A stretch of 64,000 nt of DNA from an uncultured Pirellulales bacterium (GTDB taxonomy: Bacteria; Planctomycetota; Phycisphaerae; Sedimentisphaerales; Anaerobacaceae): positions 2,660 to 66,659 of the forward strand of contig CAZTDF010000001.1 of the NCBI GenBank assembly GCA_964612465.1, given 5' to 3'. Position numbers and translations under genes: made by a program. The notes beneath the pieces are model-generated. The model was given only the letters and a program-made list of their open reading frames with translations. It did no database searches and was not told the DNA's origin. Positions 18,532 through 64,000 of the stretch are shown piece after piece (positions within the stretch are counted from its first letter, which is position 1; each line of letters starts with the position of its first letter).

Positions 18532-18622
18532 AACGTGTAGCGATTTATTAGTTGTTGGTTATTCGTTGTTCATTGGAATTGCTTAGAACTATGAACTACG
18601 AACTAAAAATTGGAGTTATAAG

Positions 18623-35176: not shown

Positions 35177-35274
35177 TTCATACATTGGTTCGTCCTTGGA
35201 GAGAACGAGCGTGGGCTTGGGAATTCGATAAAAGAACGCACTCTCTCGGCTACGACATCACATTGCTCTGATGG

Positions 35275-44923: not shown

Positions 44924-44934
44924 AGGAGCACAAG

Positions 44935-46194: not shown

Positions 46195-46237
46195 GTAATC
46201 TGCGTATAAATTTTATTGTAGGAGGATTATTTCTGCC

Positions 46238-48158: not shown

Positions 48159-48159
48159 T

Positions 48160-48453
48160 ATGGCGACGGCAGAAAAAAACCAACTTAGTCTGAATGATAA
48201 GCTTTTTACTGTTCGCAGAAAGCCGCTCAAAGAATCACATATCAGGCTCGATAAACAGTTGTGTAAAAAGTGTCTCAATAGAATATGCACATATATATGC
48301 CCGGCAGAGGTTTATATTTGGAGTGAATCCAAAAACGAAATTGATATAAGATATGAAAACTGTCTCGAATGCGGCGCCTGTCGCGTAGCGTGTGACAGCA
48401 TAGAATGGGCAAATCCTGTATGGGGAACAGGGATTGCATATAAGAACAGTTAA
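48160..48453 (+). CDS. fixX: FixX/EtfX ferredoxin-like protein
   Basis: 97 aa. CKKCLNRICTYICPAEV and CLECGACRVACD. Starts 1 nt after fixC. Confidence 0.85.
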   Translation: MATAEKNQLSLNDKLFTVRRKPLKESHIRLDKQLCKKCLNRICTYICPAEVYIWSESKNEIDIRYENCLECGACRVACDSIEWANPVWGTGIAYKNS

Positions 48454-48486
48454 TATAAAAACAAAAAGAGGTTAGGTGAAATTGAT

Positions 48487-49412: not shown

Positions 49413-50408
49413 TTGAGGGTTGATAAAAAACAGGTCGGTAAAAGTTCGAAGCGATACTACTGGTTGGCTTTTGTTATCGGCGGGATGACGGCTGCTTTAA
49501 TGGGTTGTTTAGTATATTCGTACGTAACCAAAGGTAACCACAGTCTTTTGAGTAGTGCTGTCGGTAATCCCAAGGCGGATGAAGCGAACGTTCGGACTGA
49601 CCCGACGGAGGAGAAGTCTGTTTCGCCATCCGCTTTTCTCGGAGTAGAGATTATGTCTGTGAATGCGGTTATTGCTGAGCAGTTTGGCCTGTCGAATCCG
49701 TGCGGTGTTCTTGTAAACAGCGTTGTTGACGGCTCACCAGCTCAAGAGTCGGGACTTCGAAGAAGTGATGTTATTCTATCCCTGAATAGCATTGCAGTTG
49801 AGGACGTAAACAGCTTCAGAAGTATTATGAGCACTCTAAATCCCGGTGACAATGTGAAAATTGTGTACATAAGAAACAGGCAAAAAGATACAGTCTATGC
49901 CACATTAGCCGACTCATCCGCCGTTCTGAATGTCGCGAAAGATACAAGTGGTTCTGACTGGGGTGTATTGCTGTCTGTTCTCAATTCGGATTTGCGCAGT
50001 TCGCTGCGTATTCCGGCCAATATCGATGGGATTGTGATTCTGTCGGTAACACCAGGTGGCCTGGCGGATCAGGCTGGTTTGCTGCCCGGCGATGTGATTA
50101 CCGGGATTAACAATACGCCAATTGCAGATATGGGCGACTTCTTCGGTGCATTGTCGTCAGACAAAGACGACAAAGTACTTCTGGATGTTTACAGTCAGGG
50201 CACATTACGTTATGTGGCGTTGGATTCATCCGGTGTCGTCACAGCGGTTGCCAGTACACAGACAAGTCTGCTGGACAGAATACTTTCGGCATTTACTGAC
50301 AACGATAACGTCATACTTACCGAACATACAAATGAAGAGGATGATTATGAAAAGCCGGTATGCAAACGGCTCGAGGAATCAGGGGAACGTTATGAAGATG
50401 AAGACTGA
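49413..50408 (+). CDS. Membrane-anchored double-PDZ protein (the PDZ half of a split HtrA; MamP/MamE-C-terminal-like but without heme motifs)
   Basis: TTG start, TM helix YYWLAFVIGGMTAALMGCLVY. PDZ1: GVLVNSVVDGSPAQESGLRRSDVILSLN. PDZ2: GIVILSVTPGGLADQAGLLPGDVITGIN. No CXXCH. Confidence 0.75.
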   Translation: MRVDKKQVGKSSKRYYWLAFVIGGMTAALMGCLVYSYVTKGNHSLLSSAVGNPKADEANVRTDPTEEKSVSPSAFLGVEIMSVNAVIAEQFGLSNPCGVLVNSVVDGSPAQESGLRRSDVILSLNSIAVEDVNSFRSIMSTLNPGDNVKIVYIRNRQKDTVYATLADSSAVLNVAKDTSGSDWGVLLSVLNSDLRSSLRIPANIDGIVILSVTPGGLADQAGLLPGDVITGINNTPIADMGDFFGALSSDKDDKVLLDVYSQGTLRYVALDSSGVVTAVASTQTSLLDRILSAFTDNDNVILTEHTNEEDDYEKPVCKRLEESGERYEDED

Positions 50409-50423
50409 TAAAAAGGTGTGCAG

Positions 50424-51359
50424 ATGAATTTCAAAAAATGGCTTTCGGAAAATATCTTGTGGGTGCTCGTAGCACTTGTCGTAGTTAACTTTCTCATAGT
50501 GTACTGGGGTACTATCAATCTGGGAATCTATGGCACGCGCAGCTCCCTCCTGAGGTGGGACCTGCTGCAGCGCAAGAAACCGCTCTTACAGGAGCAGACC
50601 ACAGCAGCAAATGTAGAAGTTGATACGCTTACAATGCCGGGTCAGCGTCCGAGTACGGTTGCAAGTAATAATCTTGTATTAACATGTGCGGATGATGATT
50701 TGGCCTCTGCCTTTGCGTCTGTCAGGCCTGCGGTTGTCAATATAACTGCGGACAAGGTAACACAGAGAAGAGGCGGGCCGGCTTTGGCAAGTTCAGTTGC
50801 TTTCGATGACCCGTCCATACAATTCGTTGAAGAGGCATCTCTTGGGTCAGGAATTATCGTTGACCACAGGGGTTATATCGTGACCAATGCTCATGTAGTA
50901 GCCAATGCCACAAGTATCAAGGTTGTAACCTTCAGTTCGGCAAGAGTGGTTTATCCAGCCGTAATCATTCGCAAAGACCTGGAAAATGATATTGCCATTT
51001 TGAAGATCGAACTCGACTCGTCTATGCCTACTGTGATTCTCGGAGACTCCGATATGATAAAAGTGGCTGATATAGTTCTGACCGTAGGCTCGCCTTTCGG
51101 GTTAGAGCAAACCGTTACGGCAGGGATTATAAGCGATGATTCAAGAAACCTTGTCATAGACGGCCAAACCTATGATGATATGATTCAGACAGATGCGGCT
51201 ATTAACAGGGGCAATTCCGGCGGACCGCTTATCAACGTAAAAGGCGAGGTCATAGGCATAAACACAGCCATCTACGCTCCTACCGGCGTATTCACAGGTG
51301 TTGGATTTGCGATTCCTATTAACAAGGTAAAACCAATTGTCAAAGAAACAATCAGGTAA
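50424..51359 (+). CDS. Trypsin-like (HtrA/DegP-type) serine protease domain protein with an intact triad and no PDZ (MamE-N-terminal-like)
   Basis: TM anchor ILWVLVALVVVNFLIVYW. His in YIVTNAHVV, Asp in ENDIAILKI, Ser in NRGNSGGPLIN. GTG 50418 is an alternative start. Confidence 0.85.
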   Translation: MNFKKWLSENILWVLVALVVVNFLIVYWGTINLGIYGTRSSLLRWDLLQRKKPLLQEQTTAANVEVDTLTMPGQRPSTVASNNLVLTCADDDLASAFASVRPAVVNITADKVTQRRGGPALASSVAFDDPSIQFVEEASLGSGIIVDHRGYIVTNAHVVANATSIKVVTFSSARVVYPAVIIRKDLENDIAILKIELDSSMPTVILGDSDMIKVADIVLTVGSPFGLEQTVTAGIISDDSRNLVIDGQTYDDMIQTDAAINRGNSGGPLINVKGEVIGINTAIYAPTGVFTGVGFAIPINKVKPIVKETIR

Positions 51360-51364
51360 AAAAT

Positions 51365-51571
51365 ATGTGGCGAACGATAATAGTTGTAATTGTTGTATTG
51401 ATTATTTTCCTGTTTATTGGCGACAATATGCACACAACACGGGTAAATATGCCTTTCACAAACGGCTTTGAGATAAGAACGGTTTTTCTTTTGGCCTTGA
51501 GCTTTATTGTCGGTTACGGCACGGCGTCCCTCGTAGGTTTTATAAAAAACTCCAAAAATAACAAAAAGTGA
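51365..51571 (+). CDS. Small 2-TM protein with a basic tail (LapA/DUF1049-type; MamL-like by architecture)
   Basis: MWRTIIVVIVVLIIFLFIGDNMHTTRVNMPF...FLLALSFIVGYGTASLVGFIKNSKNNKK. Two TM helices and a Lys-rich C-terminus. Lies between the protease and CDF genes. Confidence 0.55.
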   Translation: MWRTIIVVIVVLIIFLFIGDNMHTTRVNMPFTNGFEIRTVFLLALSFIVGYGTASLVGFIKNSKNNKK

Positions 51572-51582
51572 ATTAATTGCAA

Positions 51583-52455
51583 ATGAGCACAATTAAATTA
51601 TATCCAAATCCTGACGATTCAGTTCAACCATTTCTGGCAGGGCTGCTGGCTAATCTGGCGATTGCCATTCTGAAGTTTGGAATAGCCTTACTGGGCGGCA
51701 GCAGGCTGGTTTTGATGGACGGCCTTTTCTCCTTTATGGCGGCAGTGGCTTTTTTGATTCCATGGCAAGCACAGGTTATAGAAAAAAAGCCTCACGATGA
51801 GAGATACCCGTATGGCTTAGGCAAGGTACTGTTTATAAGTATGGCAGTGATCGGCTTTCTTGGTCTGGTTATTTCTGTTCATATGATTTACTACAGCCTG
51901 GTGGTCATGGCTGGACTACAAATGCATGGTTTATACACCCTGGCGATAATGGTCACGATTATATCTGTAATAACCAACGAGGTTCTTTATCGATATCTTG
52001 CGGAGAAAACCAAAAGTTGCTCAAGTACAGTGTTGGCCATGTCCGGGCGTTACAATCGCATCGGTGCGTGGATTTCGTCTTTTGTCCTGTTATTTTTAAT
52101 TCTTTCTTATCTCGGTGGTGCGTATCTTGAGAGGATTGGTGTCGCAATCATTTCAATCGTTGTGTTTTTTATCAGCCTTCGAATGCTTTTTGTGGGCTTT
52201 AGCGGGATTATGGACAAGGTTCCATCACCCAAAATCCTGGAGCGAATAAGGGTATGCACGCAAAAGGTAAGCGAGGAAAAAGAGATTATAAACGTAAAGG
52301 CCAGGTACGTTGGAACACTGCTGCATATTGATATGTGGATAAGAGTAGATGATGAGCTCAGTATGGAGCAGGCCGATAGAATTGCCCGCCGCGTCAAAGT
52401 ACAGTTAATGGAGAAAATTCCTTTCGCAAGAGAAGTGAATGTTATTATCGCATGA
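51583..52455 (+). CDS. Cation diffusion facilitator (CDF) family protein with a degenerate transport site (MamM-like position)
   Basis: CDF landmarks KKPHDERYPYGLGKV and a C-terminal domain (NVKARYVGTLLHIDMWIRVD). TM2 reads LVLMDGLFSFMAAV and TM5 reads LAMSGRYNRIGAW, so the usual HxxxD/[HD]xxxD pairs are missing. TTG 51577 is an alternative start. Confidence 0.7.
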   Translation: MSTIKLYPNPDDSVQPFLAGLLANLAIAILKFGIALLGGSRLVLMDGLFSFMAAVAFLIPWQAQVIEKKPHDERYPYGLGKVLFISMAVIGFLGLVISVHMIYYSLVVMAGLQMHGLYTLAIMVTIISVITNEVLYRYLAEKTKSCSSTVLAMSGRYNRIGAWISSFVLLFLILSYLGGAYLERIGVAIISIVVFFISLRMLFVGFSGIMDKVPSPKILERIRVCTQKVSEEKEIINVKARYVGTLLHIDMWIRVDDELSMEQADRIARRVKVQLMEKIPFAREVNVIIA

Positions 52456-52934
52456 TAACGACTAAGAAAAAAGTTTTTATTTTAGTAGTTGTTTTGGCTT
52501 TAGCTGTCTTATTAATAGCTGGAAGATTGGTAGTATGCGCCAGGACTGCAGGGGTGGCCCAATCTGCTGACAGTTTTGTTTTTAACTTGCCCAATGAGGC
52601 CGGTTTCTACAATATTACCGTCGTTGAATTGAAGACCAGGATAGACAACAAATCCGATAAGAATTTTATAGTCGTCGATATCAGAGATAACGCATCTTAT
52701 GCCCAGGGTCATATACCCGGGGCGATAAACATACCTTTAAATGAACTGGGCTACCGCGTATTCAGTCTGGATAAAACAAAGGACATAATCGTGTATTGCT
52801 TTACCGGCGTAACAAGCCAGGTTGCATGCCAGATACTTGTAAATGCCGGGTTTAAAGATGTGTATAACGTGATAGGCGGAATAAAAGCGTGGAATTATGC
52901 TGTTGAAACAAGCGATGGCAGAGTAGATATTTAA
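52452..52934 (+). CDS. Membrane-anchored rhodanese-domain protein (sulfurtransferase-like)
   Basis: N-terminal TM helix VFILVVVLALAVLLIA. Rhodanese strings VVDIRDNASYAQGHIPGAINIP and active-site loop IIVYCFTGVTSQVA. ATGA overlap with the preceding CDF gene. Confidence 0.8.
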   Translation: MITTKKKVFILVVVLALAVLLIAGRLVVCARTAGVAQSADSFVFNLPNEAGFYNITVVELKTRIDNKSDKNFIVVDIRDNASYAQGHIPGAINIPLNELGYRVFSLDKTKDIIVYCFTGVTSQVACQILVNAGFKDVYNVIGGIKAWNYAVETSDGRVDI

Positions 52935-52970
52935 GAAAAATGAAGAAAAATTTAGTAGAAAGGAGCAAAA

Positions 52971-53168
52971 ATGTTGCACATTGTTGTAGGAATCATCGCA
53001 ATCGTGATTGGACTGTGGGGGATAATGGGCAACTGGTATATGTTCAAAGATATACTGGTTACTATCGTGCCGCTGGCAGTGCTTTTATTTGGAATAGTGG
53101 CAGTATTAGCCGGTATTCGCAAAATGAAAGCAAACTTGGCTGCCAAAGAGAAAAGTGAGGAGGCATAA
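52971..53168 (+). CDS. Small 2-TM protein, MamI-like
   Basis: Strong RBS AAAGGAG 5 nt upstream. MLHIVVGIIAIVIGLWGIMGNWYMFKDILVTIVPLAVLLFGIVAVLAGIRKMK.... The length, hairpin topology and IGLWG...W...VP...G pattern match my recollection of MamI. Sits directly upstream of the MamA-like gene. Confidence 0.55.
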   Translation: MLHIVVGIIAIVIGLWGIMGNWYMFKDILVTIVPLAVLLFGIVAVLAGIRKMKANLAAKEKSEEA

Positions 53169-53171
53169 AAG

Positions 53172-53834
53172 ATGACAAAGAAGAGCGAAACGAAAGAGCC
53201 CAAAAAGGATCAGGCGGTGCCGCTGACCCTTCGGACGCAGAGTTTTTTCGGCAAACTCAGAGGGTGCCTTGATGGTCTTGTTAATGGCTACTGTAATTTA
53301 ACACATATTGAAGCTGTTGAGGCAAAGGAGCTGGTCTTCAAAAAAGCTGCTGCATTGATGGAGCGTGGTCAGTACGGAAAGGCCATTGACCACTACAACA
53401 AATTGATTGGCATGGGTAAAGAAGAAGCGAATATTTATTACAACCTCGGTATCTGTTGTGAGCGGGAAGGTATGGATGAGGAGGCACAGGAGGCTTATAA
53501 GAAGGCATCTGAGATGGACAAATCCCATACGGATGCTGTCTATAGATTAGGACTGTTGGCCATAAAAAACGATGATTCTGAGGCGGCAGTTAAATATCTC
53601 AGTTCTCTTGCCCGCAAGGATAAAACGTCGTTCGACATTATGTATAACCTCGGTGTTGCCTATGACAAGCTCAAGAATTATGAAAAAGCGATAGAGAGCC
53701 TTATCAAGGCGACAAAAATTGAACCAAACTACTCCAAGGTTCACAAACGACTTGGTTACACCTATGAGGCAATGGGTAAGCGTGAAGAAGCTATGGAATG
53801 TTTCAAAAAGGCTATGGAGCTTGAAGAGATTTAG
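53172..53834 (+). CDS. mamA: TPR protein, MamA-like (220 aa)
   Basis: Five or more TPR units. The C-terminal stretch YNLGVAYDKLKNYEKAIESLIKATKIEPNYSKVHKRLGYTYEAMGKREEAMECFKKAMELEE aligns closely with the remembered Magnetospirillum MamA C-terminus (FRLGVALDNLGRFDEAIDSFKIALGLRPNEGKVHRAIAFSYEQMGRHEEALPHFKKANELDE). Its size equals MamA (about 217 aa). Confidence 0.7.
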   Translation: MTKKSETKEPKKDQAVPLTLRTQSFFGKLRGCLDGLVNGYCNLTHIEAVEAKELVFKKAAALMERGQYGKAIDHYNKLIGMGKEEANIYYNLGICCEREGMDEEAQEAYKKASEMDKSHTDAVYRLGLLAIKNDDSEAAVKYLSSLARKDKTSFDIMYNLGVAYDKLKNYEKAIESLIKATKIEPNYSKVHKRLGYTYEAMGKREEAMECFKKAMELEEI

Positions 53835-53845
53835 AAAGGTTCTTT

Positions 53846-54616
53846 ATGGCGATTCCCTTTAGAAAATCAGCCAGCGAAAAACGTCAGGAAAAGGTGCGAG
53901 TGGTCTTAGGTTCAGAGCATTTTCAGAAGAAGCGGTGGCTGCATTTATTTGGCAGGTTTATTGCTGACTATTACATGCCCATTACCATAACGGTACTGAC
54001 GGTAGCTTGTATATATGCTCATATATACTTTTACAACACATTTACCATGATGAAACAGCAGATAGACAATCGGTTAGCGCAGATAGAAGCCGGGCTTCAG
54101 ATGAGAGAAAATATTGTTACCGGCCTGACGGACGTGGTGAAAGGGTTCGTAGCCCATGAAGAGGACATATTCACATCCGCGATAGAGACAAGGAAAGATT
54201 CCATGACCGTCTCAAATGATTTGAAGAAACTGATCGAGGGCGCAAAGCAATTTGCCGGAAACGAATTTTCGCCGACTGGCTTAACAAGGCTTATGGCTGT
54301 GGCGGAGAATTACCCGCAATTAGTCTCAAGCCAGCCGTACAAAGAGCTCGTTGTTCAAATTGCGAAAGTGGAAAGCCAGATTTATGACAAAAGGCTCGAG
54401 TACAGTGACGTCATGAACATTTATAACACCCAACTGGCCACTTTTCCCGGCAATATTTTCGGGAAGATTCTGCGTTTCCAAAAACAGCCGTACTATAGCT
54501 GGGAAAATGAGGCTGAATGGGTGTTTGAAGCAAATTCACAGTTAGCTAAACCACCAGCAAATGTGGAGTCCGAGGGCATTGGCAAGAAATTAGAAGTTGA
54601 GGCTGATTCTAAATAA
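53846..54616 (+). CDS. mamQ: LemA-family membrane protein, MamQ-like
   Basis: N-terminal TM helix YYMPITITVLTVACIYAHIYF, then LemA-type helices (QIDNRLAQIEAGLQMRENIVTGLTDVVKGFVAHEEDIFTSAIETR). Located between the MamA-like and MamB-like genes, as in mamA-mamQ-(R)-mamB synteny. Confidence 0.7.
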   Translation: MAIPFRKSASEKRQEKVRVVLGSEHFQKKRWLHLFGRFIADYYMPITITVLTVACIYAHIYFYNTFTMMKQQIDNRLAQIEAGLQMRENIVTGLTDVVKGFVAHEEDIFTSAIETRKDSMTVSNDLKKLIEGAKQFAGNEFSPTGLTRLMAVAENYPQLVSSQPYKELVVQIAKVESQIYDKRLEYSDVMNIYNTQLATFPGNIFGKILRFQKQPYYSWENEAEWVFEANSQLAKPPANVESEGIGKKLEVEADSK

Positions 54617-54762
54617 AGGCAGCCTGAGTAAACAAAATAGAAAGTGATGTACCCTTGAAGGGTAATAAAATCCCGCGAGCGGAATTGTAAATTGTTGTAA
54701 AGTACCTTATCCGCGAACGAATGGGGGAATTCAATTTGGAGCACCATATAAAGGTCTGATCT

Positions 54763-55653
54763 GTGGCGATAGTGTGTAAACAATGTAATTGGTGTGTCAA
54801 GCATGTTGGCGGTTTGAATCTGTTTGGCAATATTCTTCTGCTTGCCATAAAGCTTTTAGGTGGAATATTCGGCAGAAGCCAGGCATTGATTGCCGATGCC
54901 TTGCATTCTCTAGGTGATGTTGTTGTGGCACTTATGTTACTGGTTAGCTTGAAGGTATCTTCTGTTCCACCGGATGAGGATCATCACTGGGGCCATGGCA
55001 ATATTGAGTATATCACCTCGGTCATAATAGGTGTATTGCTTATCTGTGCGGCCATTATGATTTCCATATCCGCGATATTTACTATCGTCACAGGAAGGAT
55101 GGATGATCCGGGCATTCTGGCGGTATGGGCGGCTTTGATATCTATTATTGTCAACGGAATTTTATGCAAACAGGGTATTTGTGTCGGCGAACAAATAAAT
55201 TCGCCCGTGATGATAGCAAACGCCCGGGAGAAAAGGTCAGATGCTTACACTTCTCTTGCCGCTCTGATAGGTGTTTTCGGTGCAAAGATGGGGTTTATAT
55301 TCTTAGATCCTGTTGCTGCTATTGTTGTTGGTTTTATGATTGCCAAATTCGGATTAGATACGCTTCTTGAAGGGGTCAAAGGCATATCCGACCGGTCTTT
55401 TGACAAAGAGACCCTTGCCAGCGTGAAAAGACTGGTCTTAAAGAAGGAAAGTATAAAAGATATAGGCCGATTAAGAGCCAGGCAAATCGGCCAGAAAAAT
55501 TGGATCGATCTTGAAGCGATTTTCGCTCCTGAAGTGAAAGTCTCGGAAGTAAGAACTACAATCGCAAGTCTTAGAAAAGACATAATGGAGCGATTCGAGG
55601 GGATAGCTGACGTGGTGATCATATCCCGTGCGTCAAAGCCGGAACTAAAGTAA
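54763..55653 (+). CDS. mamB: CDF transporter, MamB-like, copy 1
   Basis: GTG start. N-terminal CKQCNWC. TM2 ALIADALHSLGDVV. Loop PPDEDHHWGHGNIEYITS. TM5 CVGEQINSPVMIANAREKRSDAYTS. These are collinear with the remembered MamB strings ALVADSLHSGADVV, KPADERYPFGYGNIQYISS and CVGNENNSPAIIANAWDNRSDAISS. Confidence 0.75.
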   Translation: MAIVCKQCNWCVKHVGGLNLFGNILLLAIKLLGGIFGRSQALIADALHSLGDVVVALMLLVSLKVSSVPPDEDHHWGHGNIEYITSVIIGVLLICAAIMISISAIFTIVTGRMDDPGILAVWAALISIIVNGILCKQGICVGEQINSPVMIANAREKRSDAYTSLAALIGVFGAKMGFIFLDPVAAIVVGFMIAKFGLDTLLEGVKGISDRSFDKETLASVKRLVLKKESIKDIGRLRARQIGQKNWIDLEAIFAPEVKVSEVRTTIASLRKDIMERFEGIADVVIISRASKPELK

Positions 55654-55692
55654 ATACAGTTATCATACTTATCACATAACGAATTTAAAACT

Positions 55693-56595
55693 ATGGCAGT
55701 TGTTTGTAAAAGATGTTACTGGTGTGCCAAGCATGTCGGAGGGCTAAACTTTTGGGGCAATCTCGCCCTTCTGGTCGTAAAGCTGTTGGGCGGCATATTC
55801 GGCAGAAGCCAGGCTCTAATCGCCGATGCTGTTCATTCTCTAAGCGACGTTATCGTATCGATATTGCTTATAATCAGCTTAAAGGTCTCTTCGACGCCGC
55901 CGGACGAAGATCATCCATGGGGCCATGGTAATGTAGAATTTATCGTATCAGCCATATTTGGGGTGTTGCTTGTTTGTGCGGCTGTGGCTATTACCGCAGT
56001 GTCGATTACCTCGATTATTCAGGGAAATGTATACAATACAAGTATTTTGGCTGTGTGGGCGGCGGTCATATCCGTTGTCGCTAATGATATAATGTTCAGA
56101 CATTCCTTTTGTGTAGGCCAGAAGGTGAATTCTCCTGCAATGATAGCAAATGCCTTGGAGAACAGGGCCGATGTGTGGTCGTCGCTGGCAGTATTAGCAG
56201 GTGTTTTTGGTGCAAGGATTGGGTTTCCGGTTCTTGACCCCATTGCTGCCGTTATTGTAGGTTTTATGATTGCTAAAAATGGGATAGAAACATTGGTTTT
56301 AGGAATTAAAGGCATGACTGACCGGTCTTTTGACAAGGGAATGCTTGCCCAGGTAAAAAAAATAGTCCTGGAAGAAGTCGCCATAAAAGATGTAAGCAGG
56401 CTGCGTTCCAGACAGATCGGACAAAAAAACTGGATAGACATTGAGGCAATGTTTGATCCACAGATAAAAGTTTCAGAGGTAAAAAAGATAATCGAGAGAA
56501 TTAAGAAAAACATAATGGAAAAATTCGAAAAGATCGGGGATGTGGTAATTGTGTCCCGTGTATCAGAACCCCAGTTAAAGTTAAAGGAAATATAA
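55693..56595 (+). CDS. mamB: CDF transporter, MamB-like, copy 2 (tandem paralog)
   Basis: N-terminal CKRCYWC. ALIADAVHSLSDVI. PPDEDHPWGHGNVEFIVS. CVGQKVNSPAMIANALENRADVWSS. Roughly two-thirds identical to copy 1 by eye. Confidence 0.75.
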   Translation: MAVVCKRCYWCAKHVGGLNFWGNLALLVVKLLGGIFGRSQALIADAVHSLSDVIVSILLIISLKVSSTPPDEDHPWGHGNVEFIVSAIFGVLLVCAAVAITAVSITSIIQGNVYNTSILAVWAAVISVVANDIMFRHSFCVGQKVNSPAMIANALENRADVWSSLAVLAGVFGARIGFPVLDPIAAVIVGFMIAKNGIETLVLGIKGMTDRSFDKGMLAQVKKIVLEEVAIKDVSRLRSRQIGQKNWIDIEAMFDPQIKVSEVKKIIERIKKNIMEKFEKIGDVVIVSRVSEPQLKLKEI

Positions 56596-56597
56596 CT

Positions 56598-59500
56598 ATG
56601 ATATGGGCAAAGAATAAGGATAAAAAGAAAAAGTTAAAAACAATAACTGATGACATGACGCCCAGAGAAAAAGAACAGGTGCTGGAATATAAGAAGCGGG
56701 TAATCAGGCGATGGGCCATAGTGGTAGGGCTTCTGGCTCTTGCAACCTTTGGCTTCCTTTTTATGACGCTGCTTGACCATGTGATTAAAGGTACCCCTGA
56801 CGGTGGGCTTGAGATAAACTACAATAAGCTGGATGCAAAGCTCGCCTGGCTCGGTGCTGAGATTCGGGATTTAGACGCTACTATCAGTAGTGCACTTGGT
56901 TTAACCTCAAGCGAGGGGGTCCTCGTAAACAATGTAACATCAGGTTCACCGGCAGATCAGGTGGGTTTGCAGAGAGGCGACGTTATTATTTCCCTTGATG
57001 GAAGCAAGGTAGTCGATACCTTACAGATACAGGACCGGCTTCGGAAACTTAAACCTGGAGATACTGTCAAGCTTGTTTTAGATAAAGTAAATGGCGGCAA
57101 GAAAAATGTTTATGTTACACTTGGCGTCAAACCGGACGATGATGCTGCAACAACTGATACAAAGATTAAAAAAGTAGCAGGAACCACCGATACTGCTGTT
57201 AATCCGGTATTGTCCACGCATTGGGGAATATCGGTGTCGCCGCTGACAGATGATGCAAGGGTTGCATTCAAAATACCCGAGAAAGTTCAAGGCGTTCTTG
57301 TTGTTGCAGTCGTGCGGGGCAGTCTTGCCGATTCGCAGGGCATTAAGGTTGGAGATGTTATTGTAAGTATCAACCAGGTTTCTACGCCTAACCTGCAGGT
57401 TTTTTATCAGGCTCTCAAAGATGTTGAGAGTGTTTTGATGGATGTTTATTCATCTTCTGACGATAAAAGATTCTTTGTAACGTTTCCTGACGAAGGTGAT
57501 TCACCGCCACAAGTTGTGATGATGAGTTTTGATGAAAAAGTGGCCGAAACCCATCGTATTATCATTCCTTCTGACATGGCAGGCTTGAACGGTCAGGTTT
57601 ATTCCCGGTTTGCATCTGCTCCATATTTTATTCTGTATGATTTCAATACAAATCAGCCGACCGTAATCACTAATCCGTATGCATTACAGGTTCGCGGTGC
57701 GGGGATACCCTTAGCGCAAATGCTGATAGAACAAAAAATTGATGCCGTAATAGTAGGCGGAATAGGTCCGCAGGTATTTGATATCTTTTATCTTGCCAAA
57801 GTTAAAATCTATGGACCAGTTACAGGCAGTGTGCGAACCGCGATAACTAATTATCAGTTAGGCAAATTGCCTGAATTAAAGGAAGCTAACCTTGCCGGAT
57901 ACGGCAATTCATCGACAGCCACAATTCCGACAGGCGGCTCACCTAGGACAGAGACGGATGATACCGCTGATGATGAAGAAAGTGATGGTCTGTCCGGTCA
58001 GCCTTCGGTTATTCCACCTAAAGGCAAACCCCTCGAACTTACTGCCCAGGGCGATGCCCGTGCAAGCAGGCCGGAAACCTGCGTCTGCCCCAGATGTGGC
58101 ACAGAAGTAACTCATCCGGCAAGTACTGCCTGTGCTGATATGGTATGTCCCATTTGCGGTTCTCAGCTTATGACAGCATCGCCTGGAACTGATTCAATTA
58201 CCGGCACGGATATGACAACCCAGCTTCCAGCGACACAGATACCAACCCAGTTGAGACCTATTTCCTTAGCGGCAGGCAGTACAGTAGCACCGACAAGCCC
58301 ACCCAGCAGAATAGCAGCGATACCAACAGCCGCCAATCTATGGGCAATAAGCAATCAGCCCTCAACTACACCGCCTACAACAACACCAGTACAACAAACG
58401 GCGGGTTCTTCAACAACGGTTTGTATATGTCCTCTTGATGGCACAACAGTGACCCATCCGGTTGGTATTCCATGTTCTGCTCTTCAGTGTCCAGTTTGCG
58501 GCGGCAGAATGGTAAGTGCCAGCAGTGCAATCATTGATGGCAGCCAGATATCCAAAACTGCCGGGGTGGTAGTTGGCGGCAAACCCGATGATGTCCCACC
58601 GGTTCAGCAGGTATTTTACATACTTCCTGTTGGCGGCAAACCGGATGACATACCGCCGTCAATGGGTGGCTCGGCACAAACCGTTTCACTTGTTACGATT
58701 GGCGGCAAACCGGACGATGTACCGCCTGTTCAGCAGACATTCTACTTACTGCCAGTAGCCGGCGGACCTCCTGAGGGTATGGGCAGCGCTCCGACTGATA
58801 CCGGCAGTGCTCCGGCTGATGTGGGAGGCTCATCGCAGAGTGCTCGTTCGACAACATGTATATGTCCTGTGGATGGCACAACGGTAACCCATCCGATAGG
58901 TGTTCCCTGTTCGCAGCTTAGCTGTCCTATATGTGGTTCTCGTATGGTTAATGCCGCCCCCGGCGGTGATACTGCCGGCGGTGCAATTCAAACAGGCGGC
59001 AAACCCGATGATGTTCCACCGGTTCAGCAGGCATTTTACTTACTTCCTGTCGGCGGCAAACCGGATGACGTACCGCCTGTCCAGCAGGCCTTTTTCTTAG
59101 TGCCGGTATCGAGCCAGCCTGATGGTGTGCCGCCTTTAGGCCAGAGCACACAGTCGGTAACTCAAGCTCAAAGGACGTCGCTTGTTACGATAGCCGGCGG
59201 ACCTCCGGAGGGTATGGGTATGGGAGGGGCAGCTGATACAGGCACTGCCGTAGATGGGCCGGCACAGGGTGGTGGTCAGTCTGGCTCCGGTGCGGCCCAG
59301 ACTGGTCGCTCAGATTTATGTGTGTGCCCAATGTGTGGCGTAACCGTAACGCATCCAATATCTGTTCCGTGTTCCTCACTTACATGTCCCGTCTGCGGCT
59401 CTCGATTGGTTAACCAAACCCCTGGAGGCACAAGCGGCAATACAGCCGGCAGCAGTTTAGTACCGACAGCGGCAATTACAGTTGCTGCGACATCGAACAT

Positions 59501-59963
59501 AGTTCATGTAGCGGGGAGTTCTAAAAAATTGGTTATCCCATCCACAGGCAGAACTCTTAAATCTAATATTGCGCCGTTACTCGACGATGCTCGTTATTTC
59601 TTAATGTTCGGATTAGGAACATATGAAGCGGTACCCAATCCATATTACAGGGACAAAAGGGCAAGTGGAGATGAAATCGGTCAGTTCATAGTGGCTGAAG
59701 GCGGTTCGATTGTTATTTGCAATAACGTAAGTGCCACAGCACTCAAAGCACTCAAGGACCTGAAAGTCAAGGTATACACCGGCTTTGTGGGCACAGTTCA
59801 GCAGGCTCTTGACATATACAATGATGGCAGGATCAAGGATTCATCGACAGGGAGTGTTCTTGATGATGAAGAAGAACATGGCGGCGGTGGGCCGCCTTCA
59901 TCAAAAACCAAGTCTTCTAAAGAAAAAGACAAAGACAAAGATAATGACACGGAGGTATTTTAG
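56598..59963 (+). CDS. 1121-aa membrane-anchored multidomain protein: TM - PDZ - PDZ - NifX/NifB-type (Nitro_FeMo-Co) domain - four Cys/His knuckle modules interleaved with GGKPDDVPP repeats - second NifX-type domain - acidic/basic tail
   Basis: TM helix WAIVVGLLALATFGFLFMTLL. PDZ: GVLVNNVTSGSPADQVGLQRGDVIISLD and GVLVVAVVRGSLADSQGIKVGDVIVSIN. NifX-like 1: FASAPYFILYDFNTNQPTVITNPY...GAGIPLAQMLIEQKIDAVIVGGIGPQVFDIFYLAKVKIYGPVTGSVRTAITNY. NifX-like 2: LDDARYFLMFGLGTYEAVPNPYY...GDEIGQFIVAEGGSIVICNNVSATALKALKDLKVKVYTGFVGTVQQALDIY. Confidence 0.8.
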   Translation: MIWAKNKDKKKKLKTITDDMTPREKEQVLEYKKRVIRRWAIVVGLLALATFGFLFMTLLDHVIKGTPDGGLEINYNKLDAKLAWLGAEIRDLDATISSALGLTSSEGVLVNNVTSGSPADQVGLQRGDVIISLDGSKVVDTLQIQDRLRKLKPGDTVKLVLDKVNGGKKNVYVTLGVKPDDDAATTDTKIKKVAGTTDTAVNPVLSTHWGISVSPLTDDARVAFKIPEKVQGVLVVAVVRGSLADSQGIKVGDVIVSINQVSTPNLQVFYQALKDVESVLMDVYSSSDDKRFFVTFPDEGDSPPQVVMMSFDEKVAETHRIIIPSDMAGLNGQVYSRFASAPYFILYDFNTNQPTVITNPYALQVRGAGIPLAQMLIEQKIDAVIVGGIGPQVFDIFYLAKVKIYGPVTGSVRTAITNYQLGKLPELKEANLAGYGNSSTATIPTGGSPRTETDDTADDEESDGLSGQPSVIPPKGKPLELTAQGDARASRPETCVCPRCGTEVTHPASTACADMVCPICGSQLMTASPGTDSITGTDMTTQLPATQIPTQLRPISLAAGSTVAPTSPPSRIAAIPTAANLWAISNQPSTTPPTTTPVQQTAGSSTTVCICPLDGTTVTHPVGIPCSALQCPVCGGRMVSASSAIIDGSQISKTAGVVVGGKPDDVPPVQQVFYILPVGGKPDDIPPSMGGSAQTVSLVTIGGKPDDVPPVQQTFYLLPVAGGPPEGMGSAPTDTGSAPADVGGSSQSARSTTCICPVDGTTVTHPIGVPCSQLSCPICGSRMVNAAPGGDTAGGAIQTGGKPDDVPPVQQAFYLLPVGGKPDDVPPVQQAFFLVPVSSQPDGVPPLGQSTQSVTQAQRTSLVTIAGGPPEGMGMGGAADTGTAVDGPAQGGGQSGSGAAQTGRSDLCVCPMCGVTVTHPISVPCSSLTCPVCGSRLVNQTPGGTSGNTAGSSLVPTAAITVAATSNIVHVAGSSKKLVIPSTGRTLKSNIAPLLDDARYFLMFGLGTYEAVPNPYYRDKRASGDEIGQFIVAEGGSIVICNNVSATALKALKDLKVKVYTGFVGTVQQALDIYNDGRIKDSSTGSVLDDEEEHGGGGPPSSKTKSSKEKDKDKDNDTEVF
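58575..59109 (+). repeat. In-frame tandem/interspersed coding repeats encoding GGKPDD[VI]PP[VS]QQ.F[YF][LI][LV]PV (six copies)
   Basis: The DNA unit ggcggcaaacc(c/g)ga(t/c)ga(t/c)gt(a/c/t)cc(a/g)cc(g/t)gt(t/c)cagcag recurs at about 58575, 58632, 58701, 58995, 59052 and, degenerate, at 59110. Read directly. Confidence 0.8.
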
Positions 59964-60871
59964 TGACGGAAAGTAAGCTCGAAAAACTTATAAAAACAAA
60001 GAAACACTCAAAAGCTAATGTGATTATGATCATAATAGTTGTCGGATTTATTATTCTCATAGTGTGCCAATCGGCTTTTATGGGTTTCACAATGAAGGAA
60101 CAAACCAGAACGACTACTGCCCCTCAGGATGGTTCTATCCGAAGCAGCAACATTGCACTGACGGCTTCGAATATACAGCTTGTTGCGTGCACGGATGACG
60201 ACCTTACAGATGCGGTTTCTGCAGTAAAGAGAGCAGTTGTGAATATAGACGTAGCCCCGGCTGATGTTGGTTCTGCGAATAGAAGGGGTGAGCCTGCTTT
60301 GAGTTTTGATATGCCCTCGACAGCAGCCCTGCAAACAAACGAAGAAACTCTTGGTTCAGGTGTTATCGTTGATGCACGTGGGTATATTCTTACCTGCTAC
60401 CACTTAATAAAAGATTGCCCGAACGTTAATGTGAGTGTTTTTAGTTCTGTGCGTCAGATATACAAAGCCCAGGTTGTTGATGTCGATATTACAAATGACC
60501 TTGCAATCCTGAAGATAGAATCGGACAGGCCTTTGCCGGCAGTAAAACTGGCAAACTCCGATCTGGTCAAGATAACCGATGCGATTCTTGCTATCGGTTC
60601 GCCGTTTGGTTTCGAGCACACAGTAACCGCTGGGATAGTCAGCGATAACAAGCGAAGTATCGTCATTGGTAATACTGTTTACAAAGATATGTTACAGACG
60701 GATGCGGCAATAAACCGCGGTAGTGCCGGCGGTGCTTTGATAAATGGTGCCAGCGAAATCATTGGTATTAATACCGCCATCGCGTCTCCATCGGGATATT
60801 TTTCAGGCGTCAGTTTTGCCATACCAATAAACAAGGCCAGGCCGCTGTTGCTGAAGGCAATTGATGGCTGA
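59963..60871 (+). CDS. Trypsin-like (HtrA-fold) pseudoprotease: His and Asp retained, nucleophile Ser replaced by Ala (MamO-like logic)
   Basis: TM anchor VIMIIIVVGFIILIVCQSAF. YILTCYHLI (His) and TNDLAILKI (Asp). DAAINRGSAGGALIN aligns column for column with DAAINRGNSGGPLIN of the active paralog at 50424. GTG start overlaps the upstream stop by 1 nt. Confidence 0.8.
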   Translation: MTESKLEKLIKTKKHSKANVIMIIIVVGFIILIVCQSAFMGFTMKEQTRTTTAPQDGSIRSSNIALTASNIQLVACTDDDLTDAVSAVKRAVVNIDVAPADVGSANRRGEPALSFDMPSTAALQTNEETLGSGVIVDARGYILTCYHLIKDCPNVNVSVFSSVRQIYKAQVVDVDITNDLAILKIESDRPLPAVKLANSDLVKITDAILAIGSPFGFEHTVTAGIVSDNKRSIVIGNTVYKDMLQTDAAINRGSAGGALINGASEIIGINTAIASPSGYFSGVSFAIPINKARPLLLKAIDG

Positions 60872-60882
60872 GAGACAAGTCG

Positions 60883-62070
60883 ATGAAAAAGTTTATACAA
60901 TGGATAGCAGCGAAAGCCATTAAAGATCACCAGAGCGTTAATGATCTGAAGGTCAGGTCACGTTATGGAGCACTTGAAGGCTGGACAAGTATTGTTATCA
61001 ATTTGCTGCTGTTTATTGTTAAGATAGTCCTTGGTCTTTCGATAAGAAGCGTATCTTTGATTGCTGACGCTGTTCATACATTGGCCGATTCCGGCACTTC
61101 AGCGGTAGTTATAATCGGATTTAAAATAGCACGAAAGCCGTCGGATAAAGAACACCCGTTTGGCCATGGGAGAATGGAATCAGTAGCGGCCCTGGTCGTT
61201 TCGGTGTTACTATTTATGGCGGGTTTGGAACTATTGGAAAAGTCGATTCATGCCATTATCAAACCGCAAAGCTCTACAGCTCCGACCGGTGTGATTTTAG
61301 TAATCATCGCAACTATTGTGATAAAGGAACTGATGGCGAGGTTTTCCTATCAGCTTGGCGAGATTATTGATTCGCAGGCTCTTAAGGCAGACGCCCTTCA
61401 TCATCGAAGTGATGTAATCGCTACCGCTCTGGTAGTCGTTGCACTTATCGCAACGCGATTCGGTTATAATAATATTGATGGTATAATGGGCGTTGGTGTT
61501 TCTCTGATTATTTTTTACTCAGCCTTCTTGATTGCCAAAGAAGCGGTCAATCCTTTGCTGGGCGAGGCGCCTTCAAAAGAAAAGATTAAGGAAATAGAAA
61601 AACTGGCAATGACTCACGAAGGAGTTTTGGGCGTTCACGACATAATCTTTCACAAATACGGCCAAACGAGTGTGATCTCTTTGCATATAGAGGTATCGGA
61701 TAAGGATTCTGCTTTCAAGCTTCATGAGCTTGCAGAGCAAGTGGAAGATACAATCACTCAGAAGATTCCTGGAATGGCGGTTGTCCATGTCGATCCGTTA
61801 AACAAGGACCACCCTCAGTATGAGCAAATCACCATGGCTATAAAAGATATTATCTCTGAAGACATAAGAGTAAGTGCTTTTCATGATTTAAGAATCGTCG
61901 GTTGTCGTGCGAATAGATGTAACGTGGTTTTCGACATTGTTTTGGAGCAAGACGCTGATGAGCAGGAAACTCACGACATGATCCATTCTATAGCCGAGAA
62001 GTTCAAAACGAAGTTCCCTGAAATGAAGACAGTTATTAAAGCTGAACCGAAATACGCGTATAATATTTAG
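60883..62070 (+). CDS. CDF transporter with a canonical HxxxD/HxxxD site and an extended (duplicated) C-terminal domain
   Basis: TM2 LIADAVHTLADSG. Loop KPSDKEHPFGHGRMES. TM5 LKADALHHRSDVIAT. 395 aa with two successive CTD-like segments (GVHDIIFHKYGQTSVISLHIEV and AFHDLRIVGCRANRCNVVFDIVL). Confidence 0.85.
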   Translation: MKKFIQWIAAKAIKDHQSVNDLKVRSRYGALEGWTSIVINLLLFIVKIVLGLSIRSVSLIADAVHTLADSGTSAVVIIGFKIARKPSDKEHPFGHGRMESVAALVVSVLLFMAGLELLEKSIHAIIKPQSSTAPTGVILVIIATIVIKELMARFSYQLGEIIDSQALKADALHHRSDVIATALVVVALIATRFGYNNIDGIMGVGVSLIIFYSAFLIAKEAVNPLLGEAPSKEKIKEIEKLAMTHEGVLGVHDIIFHKYGQTSVISLHIEVSDKDSAFKLHELAEQVEDTITQKIPGMAVVHVDPLNKDHPQYEQITMAIKDIISEDIRVSAFHDLRIVGCRANRCNVVFDIVLEQDADEQETHDMIHSIAEKFKTKFPEMKTVIKAEPKYAYNI

Positions 62071-62080
62071 CACTATTATC

Positions 62081-62425
62081 ATGAATCTAATAAAGAAGAA
62101 ACTGGCCGATTTCTTAAACGAGATGAGTAACAAGGGTATAGATAAGATGGATCCGAAGAGTTCTTGCGCTAAATCTTTAAAGGATTTAGATAGAGAGACG
62201 CTCCTAAAAGAGGATATCGAGCGAATTTGCGATGAGATGCGAGTCTTGGAGGCAGGAAAAATCTTGAGATTATCCAACAAACTCATGTGGTCAGGCACAG
62301 CAAATAAGGATGAATTTAGAAAAGAAATAAAATCGATGGCTTCTAAAGTATTGAAACGTGTGGAAAAGAAAGGCGGAAAACTAAATCTTCCACGACAATG
62401 TCGAGATTTGCTGATGAATTTGTAA
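62081..62425 (+). CDS. Hypothetical soluble helical protein (114 aa)
   Basis: ORF 10 nt after the CDF gene. Its 3' end overlaps the EcsC-like gene by 28 nt. No recognisable motif. Confidence 0.45.
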   Translation: MNLIKKKLADFLNEMSNKGIDKMDPKSSCAKSLKDLDRETLLKEDIERICDEMRVLEAGKILRLSNKLMWSGTANKDEFRKEIKSMASKVLKRVEKKGGKLNLPRQCRDLLMNL

Positions 62426-63279
62426 GAGGATTACCAGTGAAGCTAAGTGAATATGAGATCAAAAGCTTGCGAGAAATAAAAAAATGGGAGAAGGACAAAC
62501 ATAAGGGCTTTCATAAGAAAGTCCTCGATGTTGTTTCCAGACCAGTGGATTATGTCCTCGGTAAGATTGGGCAAAGAAAACTCAAAATTTTTGAAGATGC
62601 TGTTGAGAAAACCGTCAATAATCTGCTAACTACTTCAACCTCTACAGTTGATGCCGAAGATCTGATAAAAAGGGCTCATGCTCATGGTGTGATGATAAAA
62701 GACCTGTCGGAACTGAAAGATTGTGATTTGGGATTGTTAGACAATTGTAACCGAAAACATATAAAATTCCACGAGAAGGCGAGTGCTATACAAGGTGCGG
62801 TAGGTGGTCTTGGGGGCATAGTGGTAGCAACAGTGGATCTAACAGCACTTTTGGTCCAGGATTTTCATATGATTCAGGAAATCGCATTTTGCTATGGTTT
62901 CGATCCGAACGATATTATCGAGAAAGAGATAATACTAAGAATAATCGAAATCGGTGTTGGCGGCTCAGAGATAAAATTCAAGGCATTACAGGAAATAGAC
63001 GCCTTAAAAAAAATAAAGACCAAAGTAAGTAAGAAAAAAACAACAAAAAAAGGTGCTTCGGTTCTGGGTTCAAAAGCCTTGGAGGAATACATCGAACAAC
63101 TGACCACAGCTTTGATCGTTCGCCTGGTGCCGCGTGCCCTGCCTGTAGTATCAATGGCGGTAAGTGCTCATTCGAATCACGAAATAATAGAGCATTCGGG
63201 AAAAGCGGCTTTTATGGTTTATCGAAGGCGATTCATTGAAAGGAAAAAGAAAACAATAGAACGACGATATAAGAAATAG
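62398..63279 (+). CDS. EcsC-family protein
   Basis: 293 aa. The central GAVGGLGGIVVATVDLTALLVQDFHMIQEIAFCYGFDPND and the C-terminal LVPRALPVVSMAVSAHSNHEIIEHSGKAAFMVYRRRF are typical of EcsC-family proteins as I recall them. Confidence 0.65.
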   Translation: MSRFADEFVRGLPVKLSEYEIKSLREIKKWEKDKHKGFHKKVLDVVSRPVDYVLGKIGQRKLKIFEDAVEKTVNNLLTTSTSTVDAEDLIKRAHAHGVMIKDLSELKDCDLGLLDNCNRKHIKFHEKASAIQGAVGGLGGIVVATVDLTALLVQDFHMIQEIAFCYGFDPNDIIEKEIILRIIEIGVGGSEIKFKALQEIDALKKIKTKVSKKKTTKKGASVLGSKALEEYIEQLTTALIVRLVPRALPVVSMAVSAHSNHEIIEHSGKAAFMVYRRRFIERKKKTIERRYKK

Positions 63280-63303
63280 ACCAAATAGAAAGGGGAATTA
63301 GCA

Positions 63304-63723
63304 ATGGATGTAACTGATTATTACTGTCCGACAACCGTAACAAGTACGCTTGGTTACTCCATGGGTCGGGCCGTCGGAGCTGCGAGGATAATAACAGTCG
63401 ATGCCATCAATCCTGTTAAAGCCGGTGCCGCCGTAGCTATTTTGTGGGGAAGTATAGCTGCTCTGGTAAATGTAAAAAAATATAAGCAGGGCAAAATAAC
63501 AAAACGGGATGCTGTTGTTGATACAGGAGGCGAAGCGGTAGGCCTGGGACTGGCTGCCGGCCTTGGCTTATTGGCAAGTAATGCAGTAAGAGCTTCGGTC
63601 CTGGTTGCCTCTACCACTTCGCTTGTTCCGTTTACCGTAGGTGTCGCAGTAACATCAGGTATGAAGGTGATGTGGAATTGCAGCACAAAGAAACATCTCA
63701 AATGTCAACCAAAACCATCGTAA
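63304..63723 (+). CDS. Small 2-3 TM protein with a MamC/Mms13-like inter-helix loop
   Basis: AGAAVAILWGSIAALVNVKKYKQGKITKRDAVVDTGGEAVGLGLAAGLGLLASNAV compared with the remembered MamC [55 protein letters not shown]. Shared pattern K..IT...A..DTG.E.VG.GLA. Confidence 0.5.
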   Translation: MDVTDYYCPTTVTSTLGYSMGRAVGAARIITVDAINPVKAGAAVAILWGSIAALVNVKKYKQGKITKRDAVVDTGGEAVGLGLAAGLGLLASNAVRASVLVASTTSLVPFTVGVAVTSGMKVMWNCSTKKHLKCQPKPS

Positions 63724-64000
63724 ATACAAATGTGTGTATTGTCTACCATAGCCTAAAAAAGGTGAGTCTCTGTAAAACACCACGTTTGGTTATACGGGTT
63801 ACTTTTTAATCTCATTTGTAATATCCAGTACGGCAATAATTAGCTTTTATAAATCAGCGACAACAACATTATTGTATGTCGAAGGTGCTTTTATTTGTAA
63901 ACGCAAGATAAAATGGACAAGCATAATTCAAAATAAACAAGTGAGGTAATTACGCCGTGAAAGAGAAAATGGAAAAGAAAAAAAGTAAGTTAAGCGCTCT

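Follow-up and report, generated by a model that had tools for sequence, protein, structure and literature searches.

A 64,000-nucleotide stretch of DNA from an uncultured Pirellulales bacterium (contig CAZTDF010000001.1, positions 2,660–66,659; referred to below as the window, in the numbering of which all positions are given) contains a magnetosome gene cluster (MGC) in its 49413–64000 part. Two trypsin-like proteins are encoded in this cluster, one of which has the intact catalytic triad (active paralog), while in the other the nucleophilic Ser of HtrA-type proteases is replaced by Ala (hereinafter the pseudoprotease, Table 1). The first-pass annotation of the window had proposed that the two proteins match column for column around the active site, GSAGG standing opposite GNSGG, and the alignment bore this out (51% identity in 237 aligned aa, E = 7e-80), the similarity being far above what chance would give. 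The paralog, which had been placed at 50424, does exist, but this position proved to be the ATG start in its open reading frame (ORF) 50418..51359, and the motif DAAINRGNSGGPLIN, with TCC as the Ser codon, is found at 51192–51236.

The H-D-A protein and its intact paralog

Families were assigned by Pfam and NCBIfam profile scores, and fold matches were collected by Foldseek against the PDB. Pfam detected Trypsin_2 in both the pseudoprotease (1.9e-28) and the active paralog (1.3e-30). The AlphaFold2 (AF2) model of the pseudoprotease that was used here had been built on diverse 50%-cluster representatives and reached a mean predicted local distance difference test (pLDDT) value of 81.8, exceeding 90 over most of the protease domain; an alignment of 75 close orthologs gave a value of 52.6, with the C-terminal barrel below 50. 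The top structural matches were the Thermotoga HtrA protease domain, DegS-deltaPDZ, AlgW, and DegP (probability 1.00 to HtrA, DegS, and DegP), and the best PDB matches by sequence were DegP, MucD, AlgW, DegQ, and DegS. The HtrA fold recognized by the first-pass annotation was thus corroborated, as was its reading of the active site: the two-barrel chymotrypsin-like domain of the HtrA/S1C family is present, but instead of the His-Asp-Ser triad the protein has His147-Asp179-Ala255. The score obtained with TIGR02037 (degP_htrA_DO) was 215 bits, which is under the full-length cutoff of 416, and Pfam found no PDZ domain on the 302-aa pseudoprotease; the PDZ domains sit on the 1121-aa ORF upstream of it.

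The DNA at 60701–60745 (gat gcg gca ata aac cgc ggt agt gcc ggc ggt gct ttg ata aat) is translated to DAAINRGSAGGALIN, in which Ser254 and Ala255 are encoded by AGT GCC at 60722–60727, the Ala codon being GCC at 60725–60727. By the positive-inside rule, the N-terminal helix would be a type-II anchor, which would place the protease fold in the periplasm or in the lumen of an organelle. The coupled arrangement of the gene start recurs at the homologous loci L001 and L004, where the upstream ORF also ends on the first base of the GTG-start protease ORF. Just before the protease domain, both paralog families carry a C-x-D-D-D-L motif (CTDDDL at 60188–60205 and CADDDL at 50685–50702), which is strongly conserved in the pseudoprotease (Cys76 in 118/120 and Asp78–80 in at least 119/120 orthologs) and is not present in the MGC proteases P0124, P0132, and P0136.

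Table 1. Positions of the pseudoprotease, its sequence elements and the neighboring genes in the window
Feature	Position	Strand	Remarks
Pseudoprotease gene	59963..60871	+	GTG start, 302 aa; predicted MamE-type, HtrA/S1C fold, triad H-D-A; positional equivalent of 'MamO*' in greigite-type clusters
Translational-coupling junction	59951..59965	+	GGAGG Shine-Dalgarno at 59951-59955, 7 nt upstream; upstream TAG 59961-59963 overlaps GTG 59963-59965 by 1 nt
N-terminal transmembrane anchor, residues 21-42	60023..60088	+	Preceded by Lys-rich N-terminus; AF2 helix 17-45, block pLDDT 93-95
TCYHL, catalytic His147 kept	60392..60406	+	Cys145 in place of Asn of HtrA 'TNxHV'
NDLAILK, catalytic Asp179 kept	60494..60514	+	Asp179 in 119/120 orthologs
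Loop LD segment GSPFGFEHTVT	60596..60628	+	No variation within orthogroup; includes His219 (Gln in active paralog)
Loop L1/oxyanion-hole motif DAAINRGSAGGALIN, residues 247-261	60701..60745	+	Ala255 at nucleophile position; Gly253 (chymotrypsin Gly193) kept
Loop L2 region NTAIASPSGYFSGVSFAIP	60770..60826	+	Entropy 0.17; unlike active paralog at 274, 275, 277, 279, 284
Active paralog	50418..51359	+	Triad H-D-S; TNAHV, NDIAILK, GNSGG; 'MamE-Nter*' position
PDZx2 membrane protein, 'MamE-Cter*' position	49413..50408	+	Pfam PDZ_2 4.1e-24; precedes active paralog
Cation diffusion facilitator (CDF) transporter	51577-52455	+	Pfam
Rhodanese, membrane-anchored	52452-52934	+	Pfam; between CDF transporter and MamI
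MamI, 65 aa	52971-53168	+	NCBIfam MamI 69.9 bits
Tetratricopeptide repeat (TPR) protein MamA(-like)	53172-53834	+	Pfam
LemA-family protein MamQ	53846-54616	+	NCBIfam MamQ 86 bits
MamB-like CDF	54763-55653	+	NCBIfam MamB 238 bits
MamB-like CDF	55693-56595	+	NCBIfam MamB 259 bits
1121-aa membrane protein	56598..59963	+	Two PDZ, two NifX-like (Nitro_FeMo-Co), four Cys-rich modules; coupled to pseudoprotease
Fourth CDF, 395 aa, 17 His	60883-62070		Best score FieF-like, two ZT_dimer matches

In the NCBIfam comparison, the pseudoprotease scored 181.9 bits with MamE and 98.5 bits with MamO, and the active paralog 207.9 and 90 bits, respectively; by these scores, both proteins are classified as MamE-type and not MamO-type. 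The full-length MamE profile (NF040960, comprising protease, magnetochrome CXXCH, and PDZ parts) was not reached, since the 181.9 bits fall short of the cutoff of 800 and only positions 40–293 of the 659 were matched, and neither was MamO (NF040961; 98.5 bits against a cutoff of 800). No CXXCH was found in the proteins of the visible cluster. In a neighbor-joining (NJ) tree of the proteases (100 bootstraps), the pseudoprotease groups with short proteases of MGC contexts, and it is itself encoded within an MGC, as indicated by the MamI, MamQ, and MamB scores and the MamA-like TPR protein. Its identity as a MamE-type pseudoprotease is regarded as very probable.

Fixation of alanine and retention of the gene

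Conservation was evaluated in the best 120 homologs of the pseudoprotease (71–93% identity, many independent assemblies), to which all counts out of 120 refer; 110 orthologs of the active paralog served for comparison and 72 other HtrA representatives as background. The dead-protease clade is very common in metagenomes, with over 120 clusters at the 90% identity level, each of them at least 71% identical to the pseudoprotease; for the active paralog, identities among the best 120 matches fell to 56%. The gene index searched contained no record of the exact pseudoprotease sequence. Ala occupies the nucleophile column in all 120 homologs, and across eight loci it is encoded by GCC, GCT, or GCA; Ala was thus maintained while its codon changed synonymously. 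His147, Cys145, His219, and Gly253 are equally invariant (120/120 each), and 122 of the 302 columns show no or almost no variation (one residue shared by at least 118/120 orthologs). Among the orthologs of the active paralog, the aligned nucleophile is Ser in 110/110 cases, GNSGG is found in 109/110, TNxHV in 109/110, and TNAHV in 108/110.

The ratio of nonsynonymous to synonymous substitutions (dN/dS), calculated by the Nei–Gojobori method among the window, L001, and L004, was 0.135–0.171 for the pseudoprotease and 0.087–0.116 for the active paralog, these values being approximate because dS is about 1. The lowest column entropy in the protein was found in the loops of the cleft, where the means for LD (residues 212–221), L1, and L2 were 0.00, 0.13, and 0.17, a level similarly low to that of the active paralog. 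Judged from these comparisons of sequences, the pseudoprotease is retained by selection. The most trivial explanation of the exchange would be a sequencing or assembly error or a gene in decay. A single base distinguishes the GCC codon from the TCC of the paralog, and an error at AGT GCC had been named in the first-pass annotation as one of the findings that could overturn its reading. Nevertheless, the occurrence of Ala in 120/120 homologs of independent assemblies, the synonymous variation of its codon in the eight loci, the dN/dS of about 0.15, the 122 (near-)invariant columns, and the intact, translationally coupled ORF with its Shine-Dalgarno sequence refute this explanation, the probability of which is practically nil.

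The GSAGG proteins formed a monophyletic clade in 99/100 NJ bootstraps, which agrees with Ser having been exchanged for Ala once, in the ancestor of this cluster type. When the most divergent GSAGG member (P0121) was used as a homology query, the main clade filled the matches listed, and no named delta-proteobacterial MamO* or MamE was among them. A second lesion occurs within the clade: the copy of the Omnitrophica-labelled L088 locus (10734–11696) and the 50%-cluster representative P0022 are H-N-A. Therefore, Asp179 is not a strict requirement in the clade, while His147 is never lost. The dead and active clades appeared as sisters in 28/100 bootstraps, and a lineage-specific duplication, which this sisterhood would imply, was not relied on.

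Sites that are fixed on different residues in the two orthogroups are grouped around the cleft (145, 146, 217 in LD, 230 in L3, 255, 274, 275, 277, and 279 in L2, and 284). The column of Cys145 is occupied by Asn in every ortholog of the active paralog (110/110) and in 64/72 of the other HtrA representatives; this Asn of 'TNxHV' (DegS Asn94) presumably helps to stabilize the oxyanion hole, a point for which no literature was found. The column of His219 contains His in 15/72 other HtrA representatives as well. The GGP-to-GGA change is unremarkable, as GGA is found in 38/110 active-paralog orthologs. On the other hand, the pseudoprotease has retained Gly253 and Gly256-Gly257 of the oxyanion hole, Phe215 and Thr220 in LD, Arg231 in L3, and Gln245. 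Phe215, Thr220, Arg231, and Gln245 would correspond to the allosteric activation cluster (Y162, T167, R178, and Q191 in DegS) of the DegS/DegP numbering.

The surrounding magnetosome gene cluster

The pairing of a degenerate with an intact protease was compared, together with the cluster architecture, in the loci that had enough flank, and it was found in L001, L004, L087, and L088 as well as in the window (H-D-A at 59963, H-D-S at 50418); the contigs of P0121, P0146, P0131, P0124, and P0126 were too short to inform on gene context. In all four loci, the GSAGG protease gene also follows a gene for a protein of the 1121-aa type (homologs of 995–1181 aa). The PDZ region of the 1121-aa protein is 37% identical to the PDZ protein encoded at 49413. 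Since both the PDZ proteins and the proteases are paralogous, the duplicated unit is a split MamE, made up of one PDZ and one protease polypeptide. The 1121-aa protein is a likely in-trans PDZ partner of the pseudoprotease. Its Cys/His module (CxCPxxGxxVTHPx5Cx4CPxCG) is repeated four times (nt 58080–58160, 58422–58502, 58857–58937, and 59319–59399), and it carries five GGKPDD[VI]PP repeats; no Pfam family matched either the modules or the repeats.

The visible cluster includes four CDF transporters (51577–52455, 54763–55653, 55693–56595, and 60883–62070), the last of which is followed by an unknown ORF, an EcsC-family protein, and a HupE-like membrane protein. A 65-aa MamI protein identical to that of the window is encoded in L084, where it was matched by the Pfam MamI family. 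The position of the rhodanese gene is conserved in L082, L084, L087, L088, L090, and L091, and the presence of a rhodanese in the cluster is suggestive of a sulfide mineral such as greigite. Upstream of the cluster, at 44135–49179, lie genes for electron transfer flavoprotein (ETF) alpha and beta, a ferredoxin-ETF fusion, an ETF-QO-like flavoprotein, and Zn_peptidase_2. ETF-QO-like and Zn_peptidase_2 genes are found in the same place in L087 (2201–3983), and Zn_peptidase_2 in L088 (1–135), so these genes may belong to the conserved unit. In L001, the downstream region encodes a 964-aa protein in which two PDZ domains are fused with a membrane H+-pyrophosphatase (16037–18931), alongside two small PDZ proteins and a metallophosphoesterase (13658–15796).

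The closest loci are labelled Planctomycetota, namely, L003 (Pirellulales; 92% identity), L001 (77%), and the single-cell genome AM-311-N14 (70%). L001 is contig DUZJ01000030 of 'Planctomycetes bacterium MAG_11118_pl_115', which is among the metagenome-assembled genomes (MAGs) of magnetotactic bacteria reconstructed by Uzun et al. (2020), who regarded the Planctomycetes clusters as putative greigite type. The first protease of L087 is labelled Desulfobacteraceae by NCBI, and L088 (GCA_015231715.1) is labelled Candidatus Omnitrophica.

The remaining part of the window contains eleven tandem MacB-type permease genes in one orientation (3501–31989; 805–843 aa, MacB_PCD + FtsX, 29–55% pairwise identity) with one ABC ATPase gene in the middle of the array (23680–24381), an HlyD-like adaptor upstream (1338–2618), and a TolC-like OEP downstream (32001–33680). 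The GC content of this block is 54.3% compared with approximately 44.5% for the rest of the window. At the GC shift (33980–38372), a DDE_Tnp_1 gene (33980–35176), an rve/DDE gene (35275–36354, minus strand), and an HTH-nucleotidyltransferase-HEPN gene (36906–38372, minus strand) are located.

Possible role and relation to known systems

Considering these results, we favor the explanation, with a probability of about 0.6, that the pseudoprotease is an inactive but functional MamE paralog that works as a non-catalytic ligand-binding or regulatory subunit. The cluster contains two split MamE modules, in each of which the gene of a membrane protein with PDZ domains precedes that of an anchored protease domain lacking them; the first has kept the intact H-D-S triad, and in the second the nucleophile is fixed as Ala and the Asn near the catalytic His as Cys, with the fold, His, Asp, the oxyanion-hole glycines, and the LD, L1, L2, and L3 loops under strong purifying selection. 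The strong conservation of the cleft loops argues for continued binding of some ligand in the former active site, and the supposed ligands would be peptides or proteins in the periplasm or the organelle lumen. The pseudoprotease would partner in trans with the coupled PDZ-NifX-Cys-module protein, and it might co-oligomerize with the active paralog and modulate or gate it. In structural work, HtrA proteins are routinely inactivated by exchanging Ser for Ala at this position, as exemplified by the top PDB matches. DegP S210A still binds its clients, and the role proposed for the pseudoprotease resembles the substrate binding of such laboratory mutants. The mechanism itself, that is, a regulatory subunit that binds peptides or proteins and does not hydrolyze them, is put forward more tentatively, at slightly less than an even chance.

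Several points weigh against this explanation. It is from the Ser-to-Ala exchange only that the protein is taken to be non-proteolytic, and both the hetero-oligomerization and the partnership with the PDZ protein are presumed. A passive binder gives no obvious reason for the strict conservation of His147 (120/120) and the near-strict conservation of Asp179, which could be accounted for by metal ligation or general-base chemistry. The sisterhood of the dead and active clades is so weakly supported that the tree leaves the timing of the duplication loose. Moreover, the product of the cluster is itself presumed, as no magnetosome-bearing cell was linked to this cluster type in the material examined.

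The conserved His and Asp, together with the oxyanion-hole glycines, would also be expected if the protein were still a protease using another nucleophile, either Ser254, the neighboring residue suggested in the first-pass annotation, or Cys145, which is invariant and near the catalytic His in sequence. However, Ser254 is replaced by Asn in 6/120 and by Gly in 2/120 orthologs, and active HtrAs commonly have Ser there as well (GSSGG; Asn in 52/72 and Ser in 19/72 representatives), without using it as the nucleophile. We know of no chymotrypsin-fold enzyme that uses the residue two before the catalytic His as nucleophile, and with the Ser-to-Ala exchange being the usual way to inactivate HtrAs, a substitute nucleophile appears highly improbable.

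A more serious alternative, which was the mechanism originally suggested for this gene, is a MamO-like repurposing, in which the dead domain would bind transition metal (Fe or Fe-S) directly and nucleate the mineral, the site being formed by Cys145, His147, His219, and Asp179 of the remodelled active site and not by a surface di-His motif as in MamO. MamO provides a precedent for it (Hershey et al., 2016; PMC4794232). Within the clade, neither Cys145 nor His219 varies, the Asn-to-Cys change is clade-defining, and His147 and Asp179 were kept without the nucleophile. Many of the functions encoded nearby also concern metal and sulfur (NifX-like domains, Cys modules, rhodanese, and the four CDF transporters), and an invariant acidic motif, C-x-D-D-D-L, stands ahead of the domain. 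Nevertheless, the hallmarks of MamO are missing: Gly253 is invariantly kept, there is no Trp and no TauE domain, and the folded domain contains only two His residues, the catalytic His147 and His219, so the His pairs envisaged as a metal site are not there. The di-His motif is missing from inactive MamEs according to Hershey et al. (2016; PMC4794232), the His219 column is occupied by His in ordinary HtrAs too (15/72), and the acidic motif is common to the active paralog and thus not specific to the dead copy. On balance, we find direct metal binding unlikely. A more elaborate version, in which the active site (oxyanion hole, His147, Asp179, Cys145, and His219) would have been converted to an iron or iron-sulfide site that is fed with Fe-S by the coupled NifX-like/Cys-module protein and seeds greigite, is less likely still; if it were true, proteases would have become mineral nucleators by two parallel routes, that of MamO and this one, which differ in their chemistry.

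The pairing of active and inactive proteases is already established for magnetotactic bacteria. Hershey et al. (2016; PMC4794232) demonstrated that MamO is a pseudoprotease and that alpha-, delta-, and gamma-Proteobacteria have each independently evolved pseudoproteases beside an active MamE; Nitrospirae and Omnitrophica were left out of their analysis. MamO of Magnetospirillum magneticum AMB-1 (PDB 5HM9/5HMA) resembles the pseudoprotease in having a trypsin fold that is encoded in a magnetosome cluster, kept by selection, devoid of serine-protease action and accompanied by an active MamE. The comparison with MamO was made by its described hallmarks (PMC4794232): Thr at the nucleophile position, a residue other than Gly at 193, a bulky Trp within L1, a di-His metal site on the surface (H148/H263), and fusion to a TauE domain. 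The pseudoprotease, by contrast, has Ala, Gly253, no Trp, a single N-terminal transmembrane segment, and no TauE domain. No MamO was among the top 50 Foldseek hits of its model.

The MamE-clade entries in S3 Table of Hershey et al. (2016; PMC4794232) comprise Q-D-D triads in MamE2 of RS-1, BW-1, and ML-1, H-N-S triads in BW-1 MamE-Nter-2, MMP 'MamE', and SS-5 MamE, and intact H-D-S triads in BW-1 MamE-Nter-3 and MMP 'MamO'; the H-D-A triad is absent from this list. The Q-D-D proteins (RS-1 MamE-Nter, BW-1 MamE-Nter-1, and ML-1 MamEO-Cter, all from magnetite-type delta clusters; represented by P0146 and P0179 in our search) are likewise short, PDZ-less members of the MamE clade located beside an active copy, but they combine His-to-Gln with Ser-to-Asp and occupy a separate NJ branch. 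In L083, the gene of P0146 (296 aa) is preceded by one for a trypsin protein with intact GNSGG and a glycine-rich hydrophobic C-terminus, possibly TauE-like (1–2307); if so, a MamO-like architecture with an intact motif would stand beside a dead short paralog. Other relatives of 570–2400 aa (P0127, P0129, P0137, P0142, P0157, P0162, P0185, and P0241) contain two to four trypsin domains per chain, and intact and degenerate triads are mixed in one protein (e.g., NGF / HDS / SNR in P0127).

The greigite-type delta clusters are more similar in organization, since one of their two proteases is also degenerate (BW-1 MamE-Nter-2 = MamE4; Ca. Magnetoglobus multicellularis 'MamE') and the gene order MamE-Cter*, E-Nter*, CDF, MamI, MamA, MamQ, MamB, MamT*, MamO* is common to the window and the XL-1/delta greigite clusters. 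The H-N-S paralogs (delta greigite clusters and gamma SS-5) differ in the lesion, having Asn for Asp and keeping the Ser. The independent degeneration proposed by the first-pass annotation is supported, with respect to MamO, by the profile scores, and by lesion type and synteny the loss in the window is also independent of the published MamE-clade pseudoproteases. By gene order, the loss is apparently reciprocal: degeneration has affected the first-position protease of the delta greigite clusters, with MMP 'MamO' being H-D-S, while in the window the first is intact and the second is dead, orthology being assigned by synteny only. In L090 and L091, the PDZ gene is immediately followed by that of the H-N-S representative P0136, which is therefore in the first position, and P0132 is an active first-position protease with intact GNSGG. 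As a caveat to reciprocal loss, P0136 has the TCYH signature in common with the dead clade of the window, and the sisterhood of the window clades is as weak as mentioned above.

Thus, the pseudoprotease opens no new category; it adds one more, apparently independent, case of clusters in which an active MamE-type protease is maintained alongside an inactive one. The case stems from a cluster type of uncultured MAGs labelled Planctomycetota, Omnitrophica, and Desulfobacteraceae, outside the study of Hershey et al. (2016). New in comparison with that study are the minimal Ser-to-Ala lesion in an active site that is otherwise intact and strongly conserved and, by synteny, the identity of the dead copy: its counterpart in the delta greigite clusters stays intact, and it is the other paralog that is degenerate there (H-N-S). 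Should the synteny reading be correct, the reciprocal loss would strengthen the case for selection on the active/inactive pair itself and not on a particular gene.

The closest counterparts of the lesion are the engineered HtrAs (E. coli DegP S210A, AlgW S227A, HtrA1 S328A, and M. tuberculosis HtrA S367A), some of which were among the top PDB matches (e.g., a DegP-like chain with GNAGG and AlgW S227A). They have the identical substitution at the identical position of the same fold, but the constructs carry their PDZ domains in cis, whereas the lesion of the pseudoprotease is natural and fixed, its presumed PDZ domains are on a separate polypeptide, and its cleft contains the further changes N145C, Y274A, and G284S. 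Such a natural Ser-to-Ala HtrA offers a practical handle for identifying the protease ligands in greigite biomineralization, the chemistry of which is essentially unstudied.

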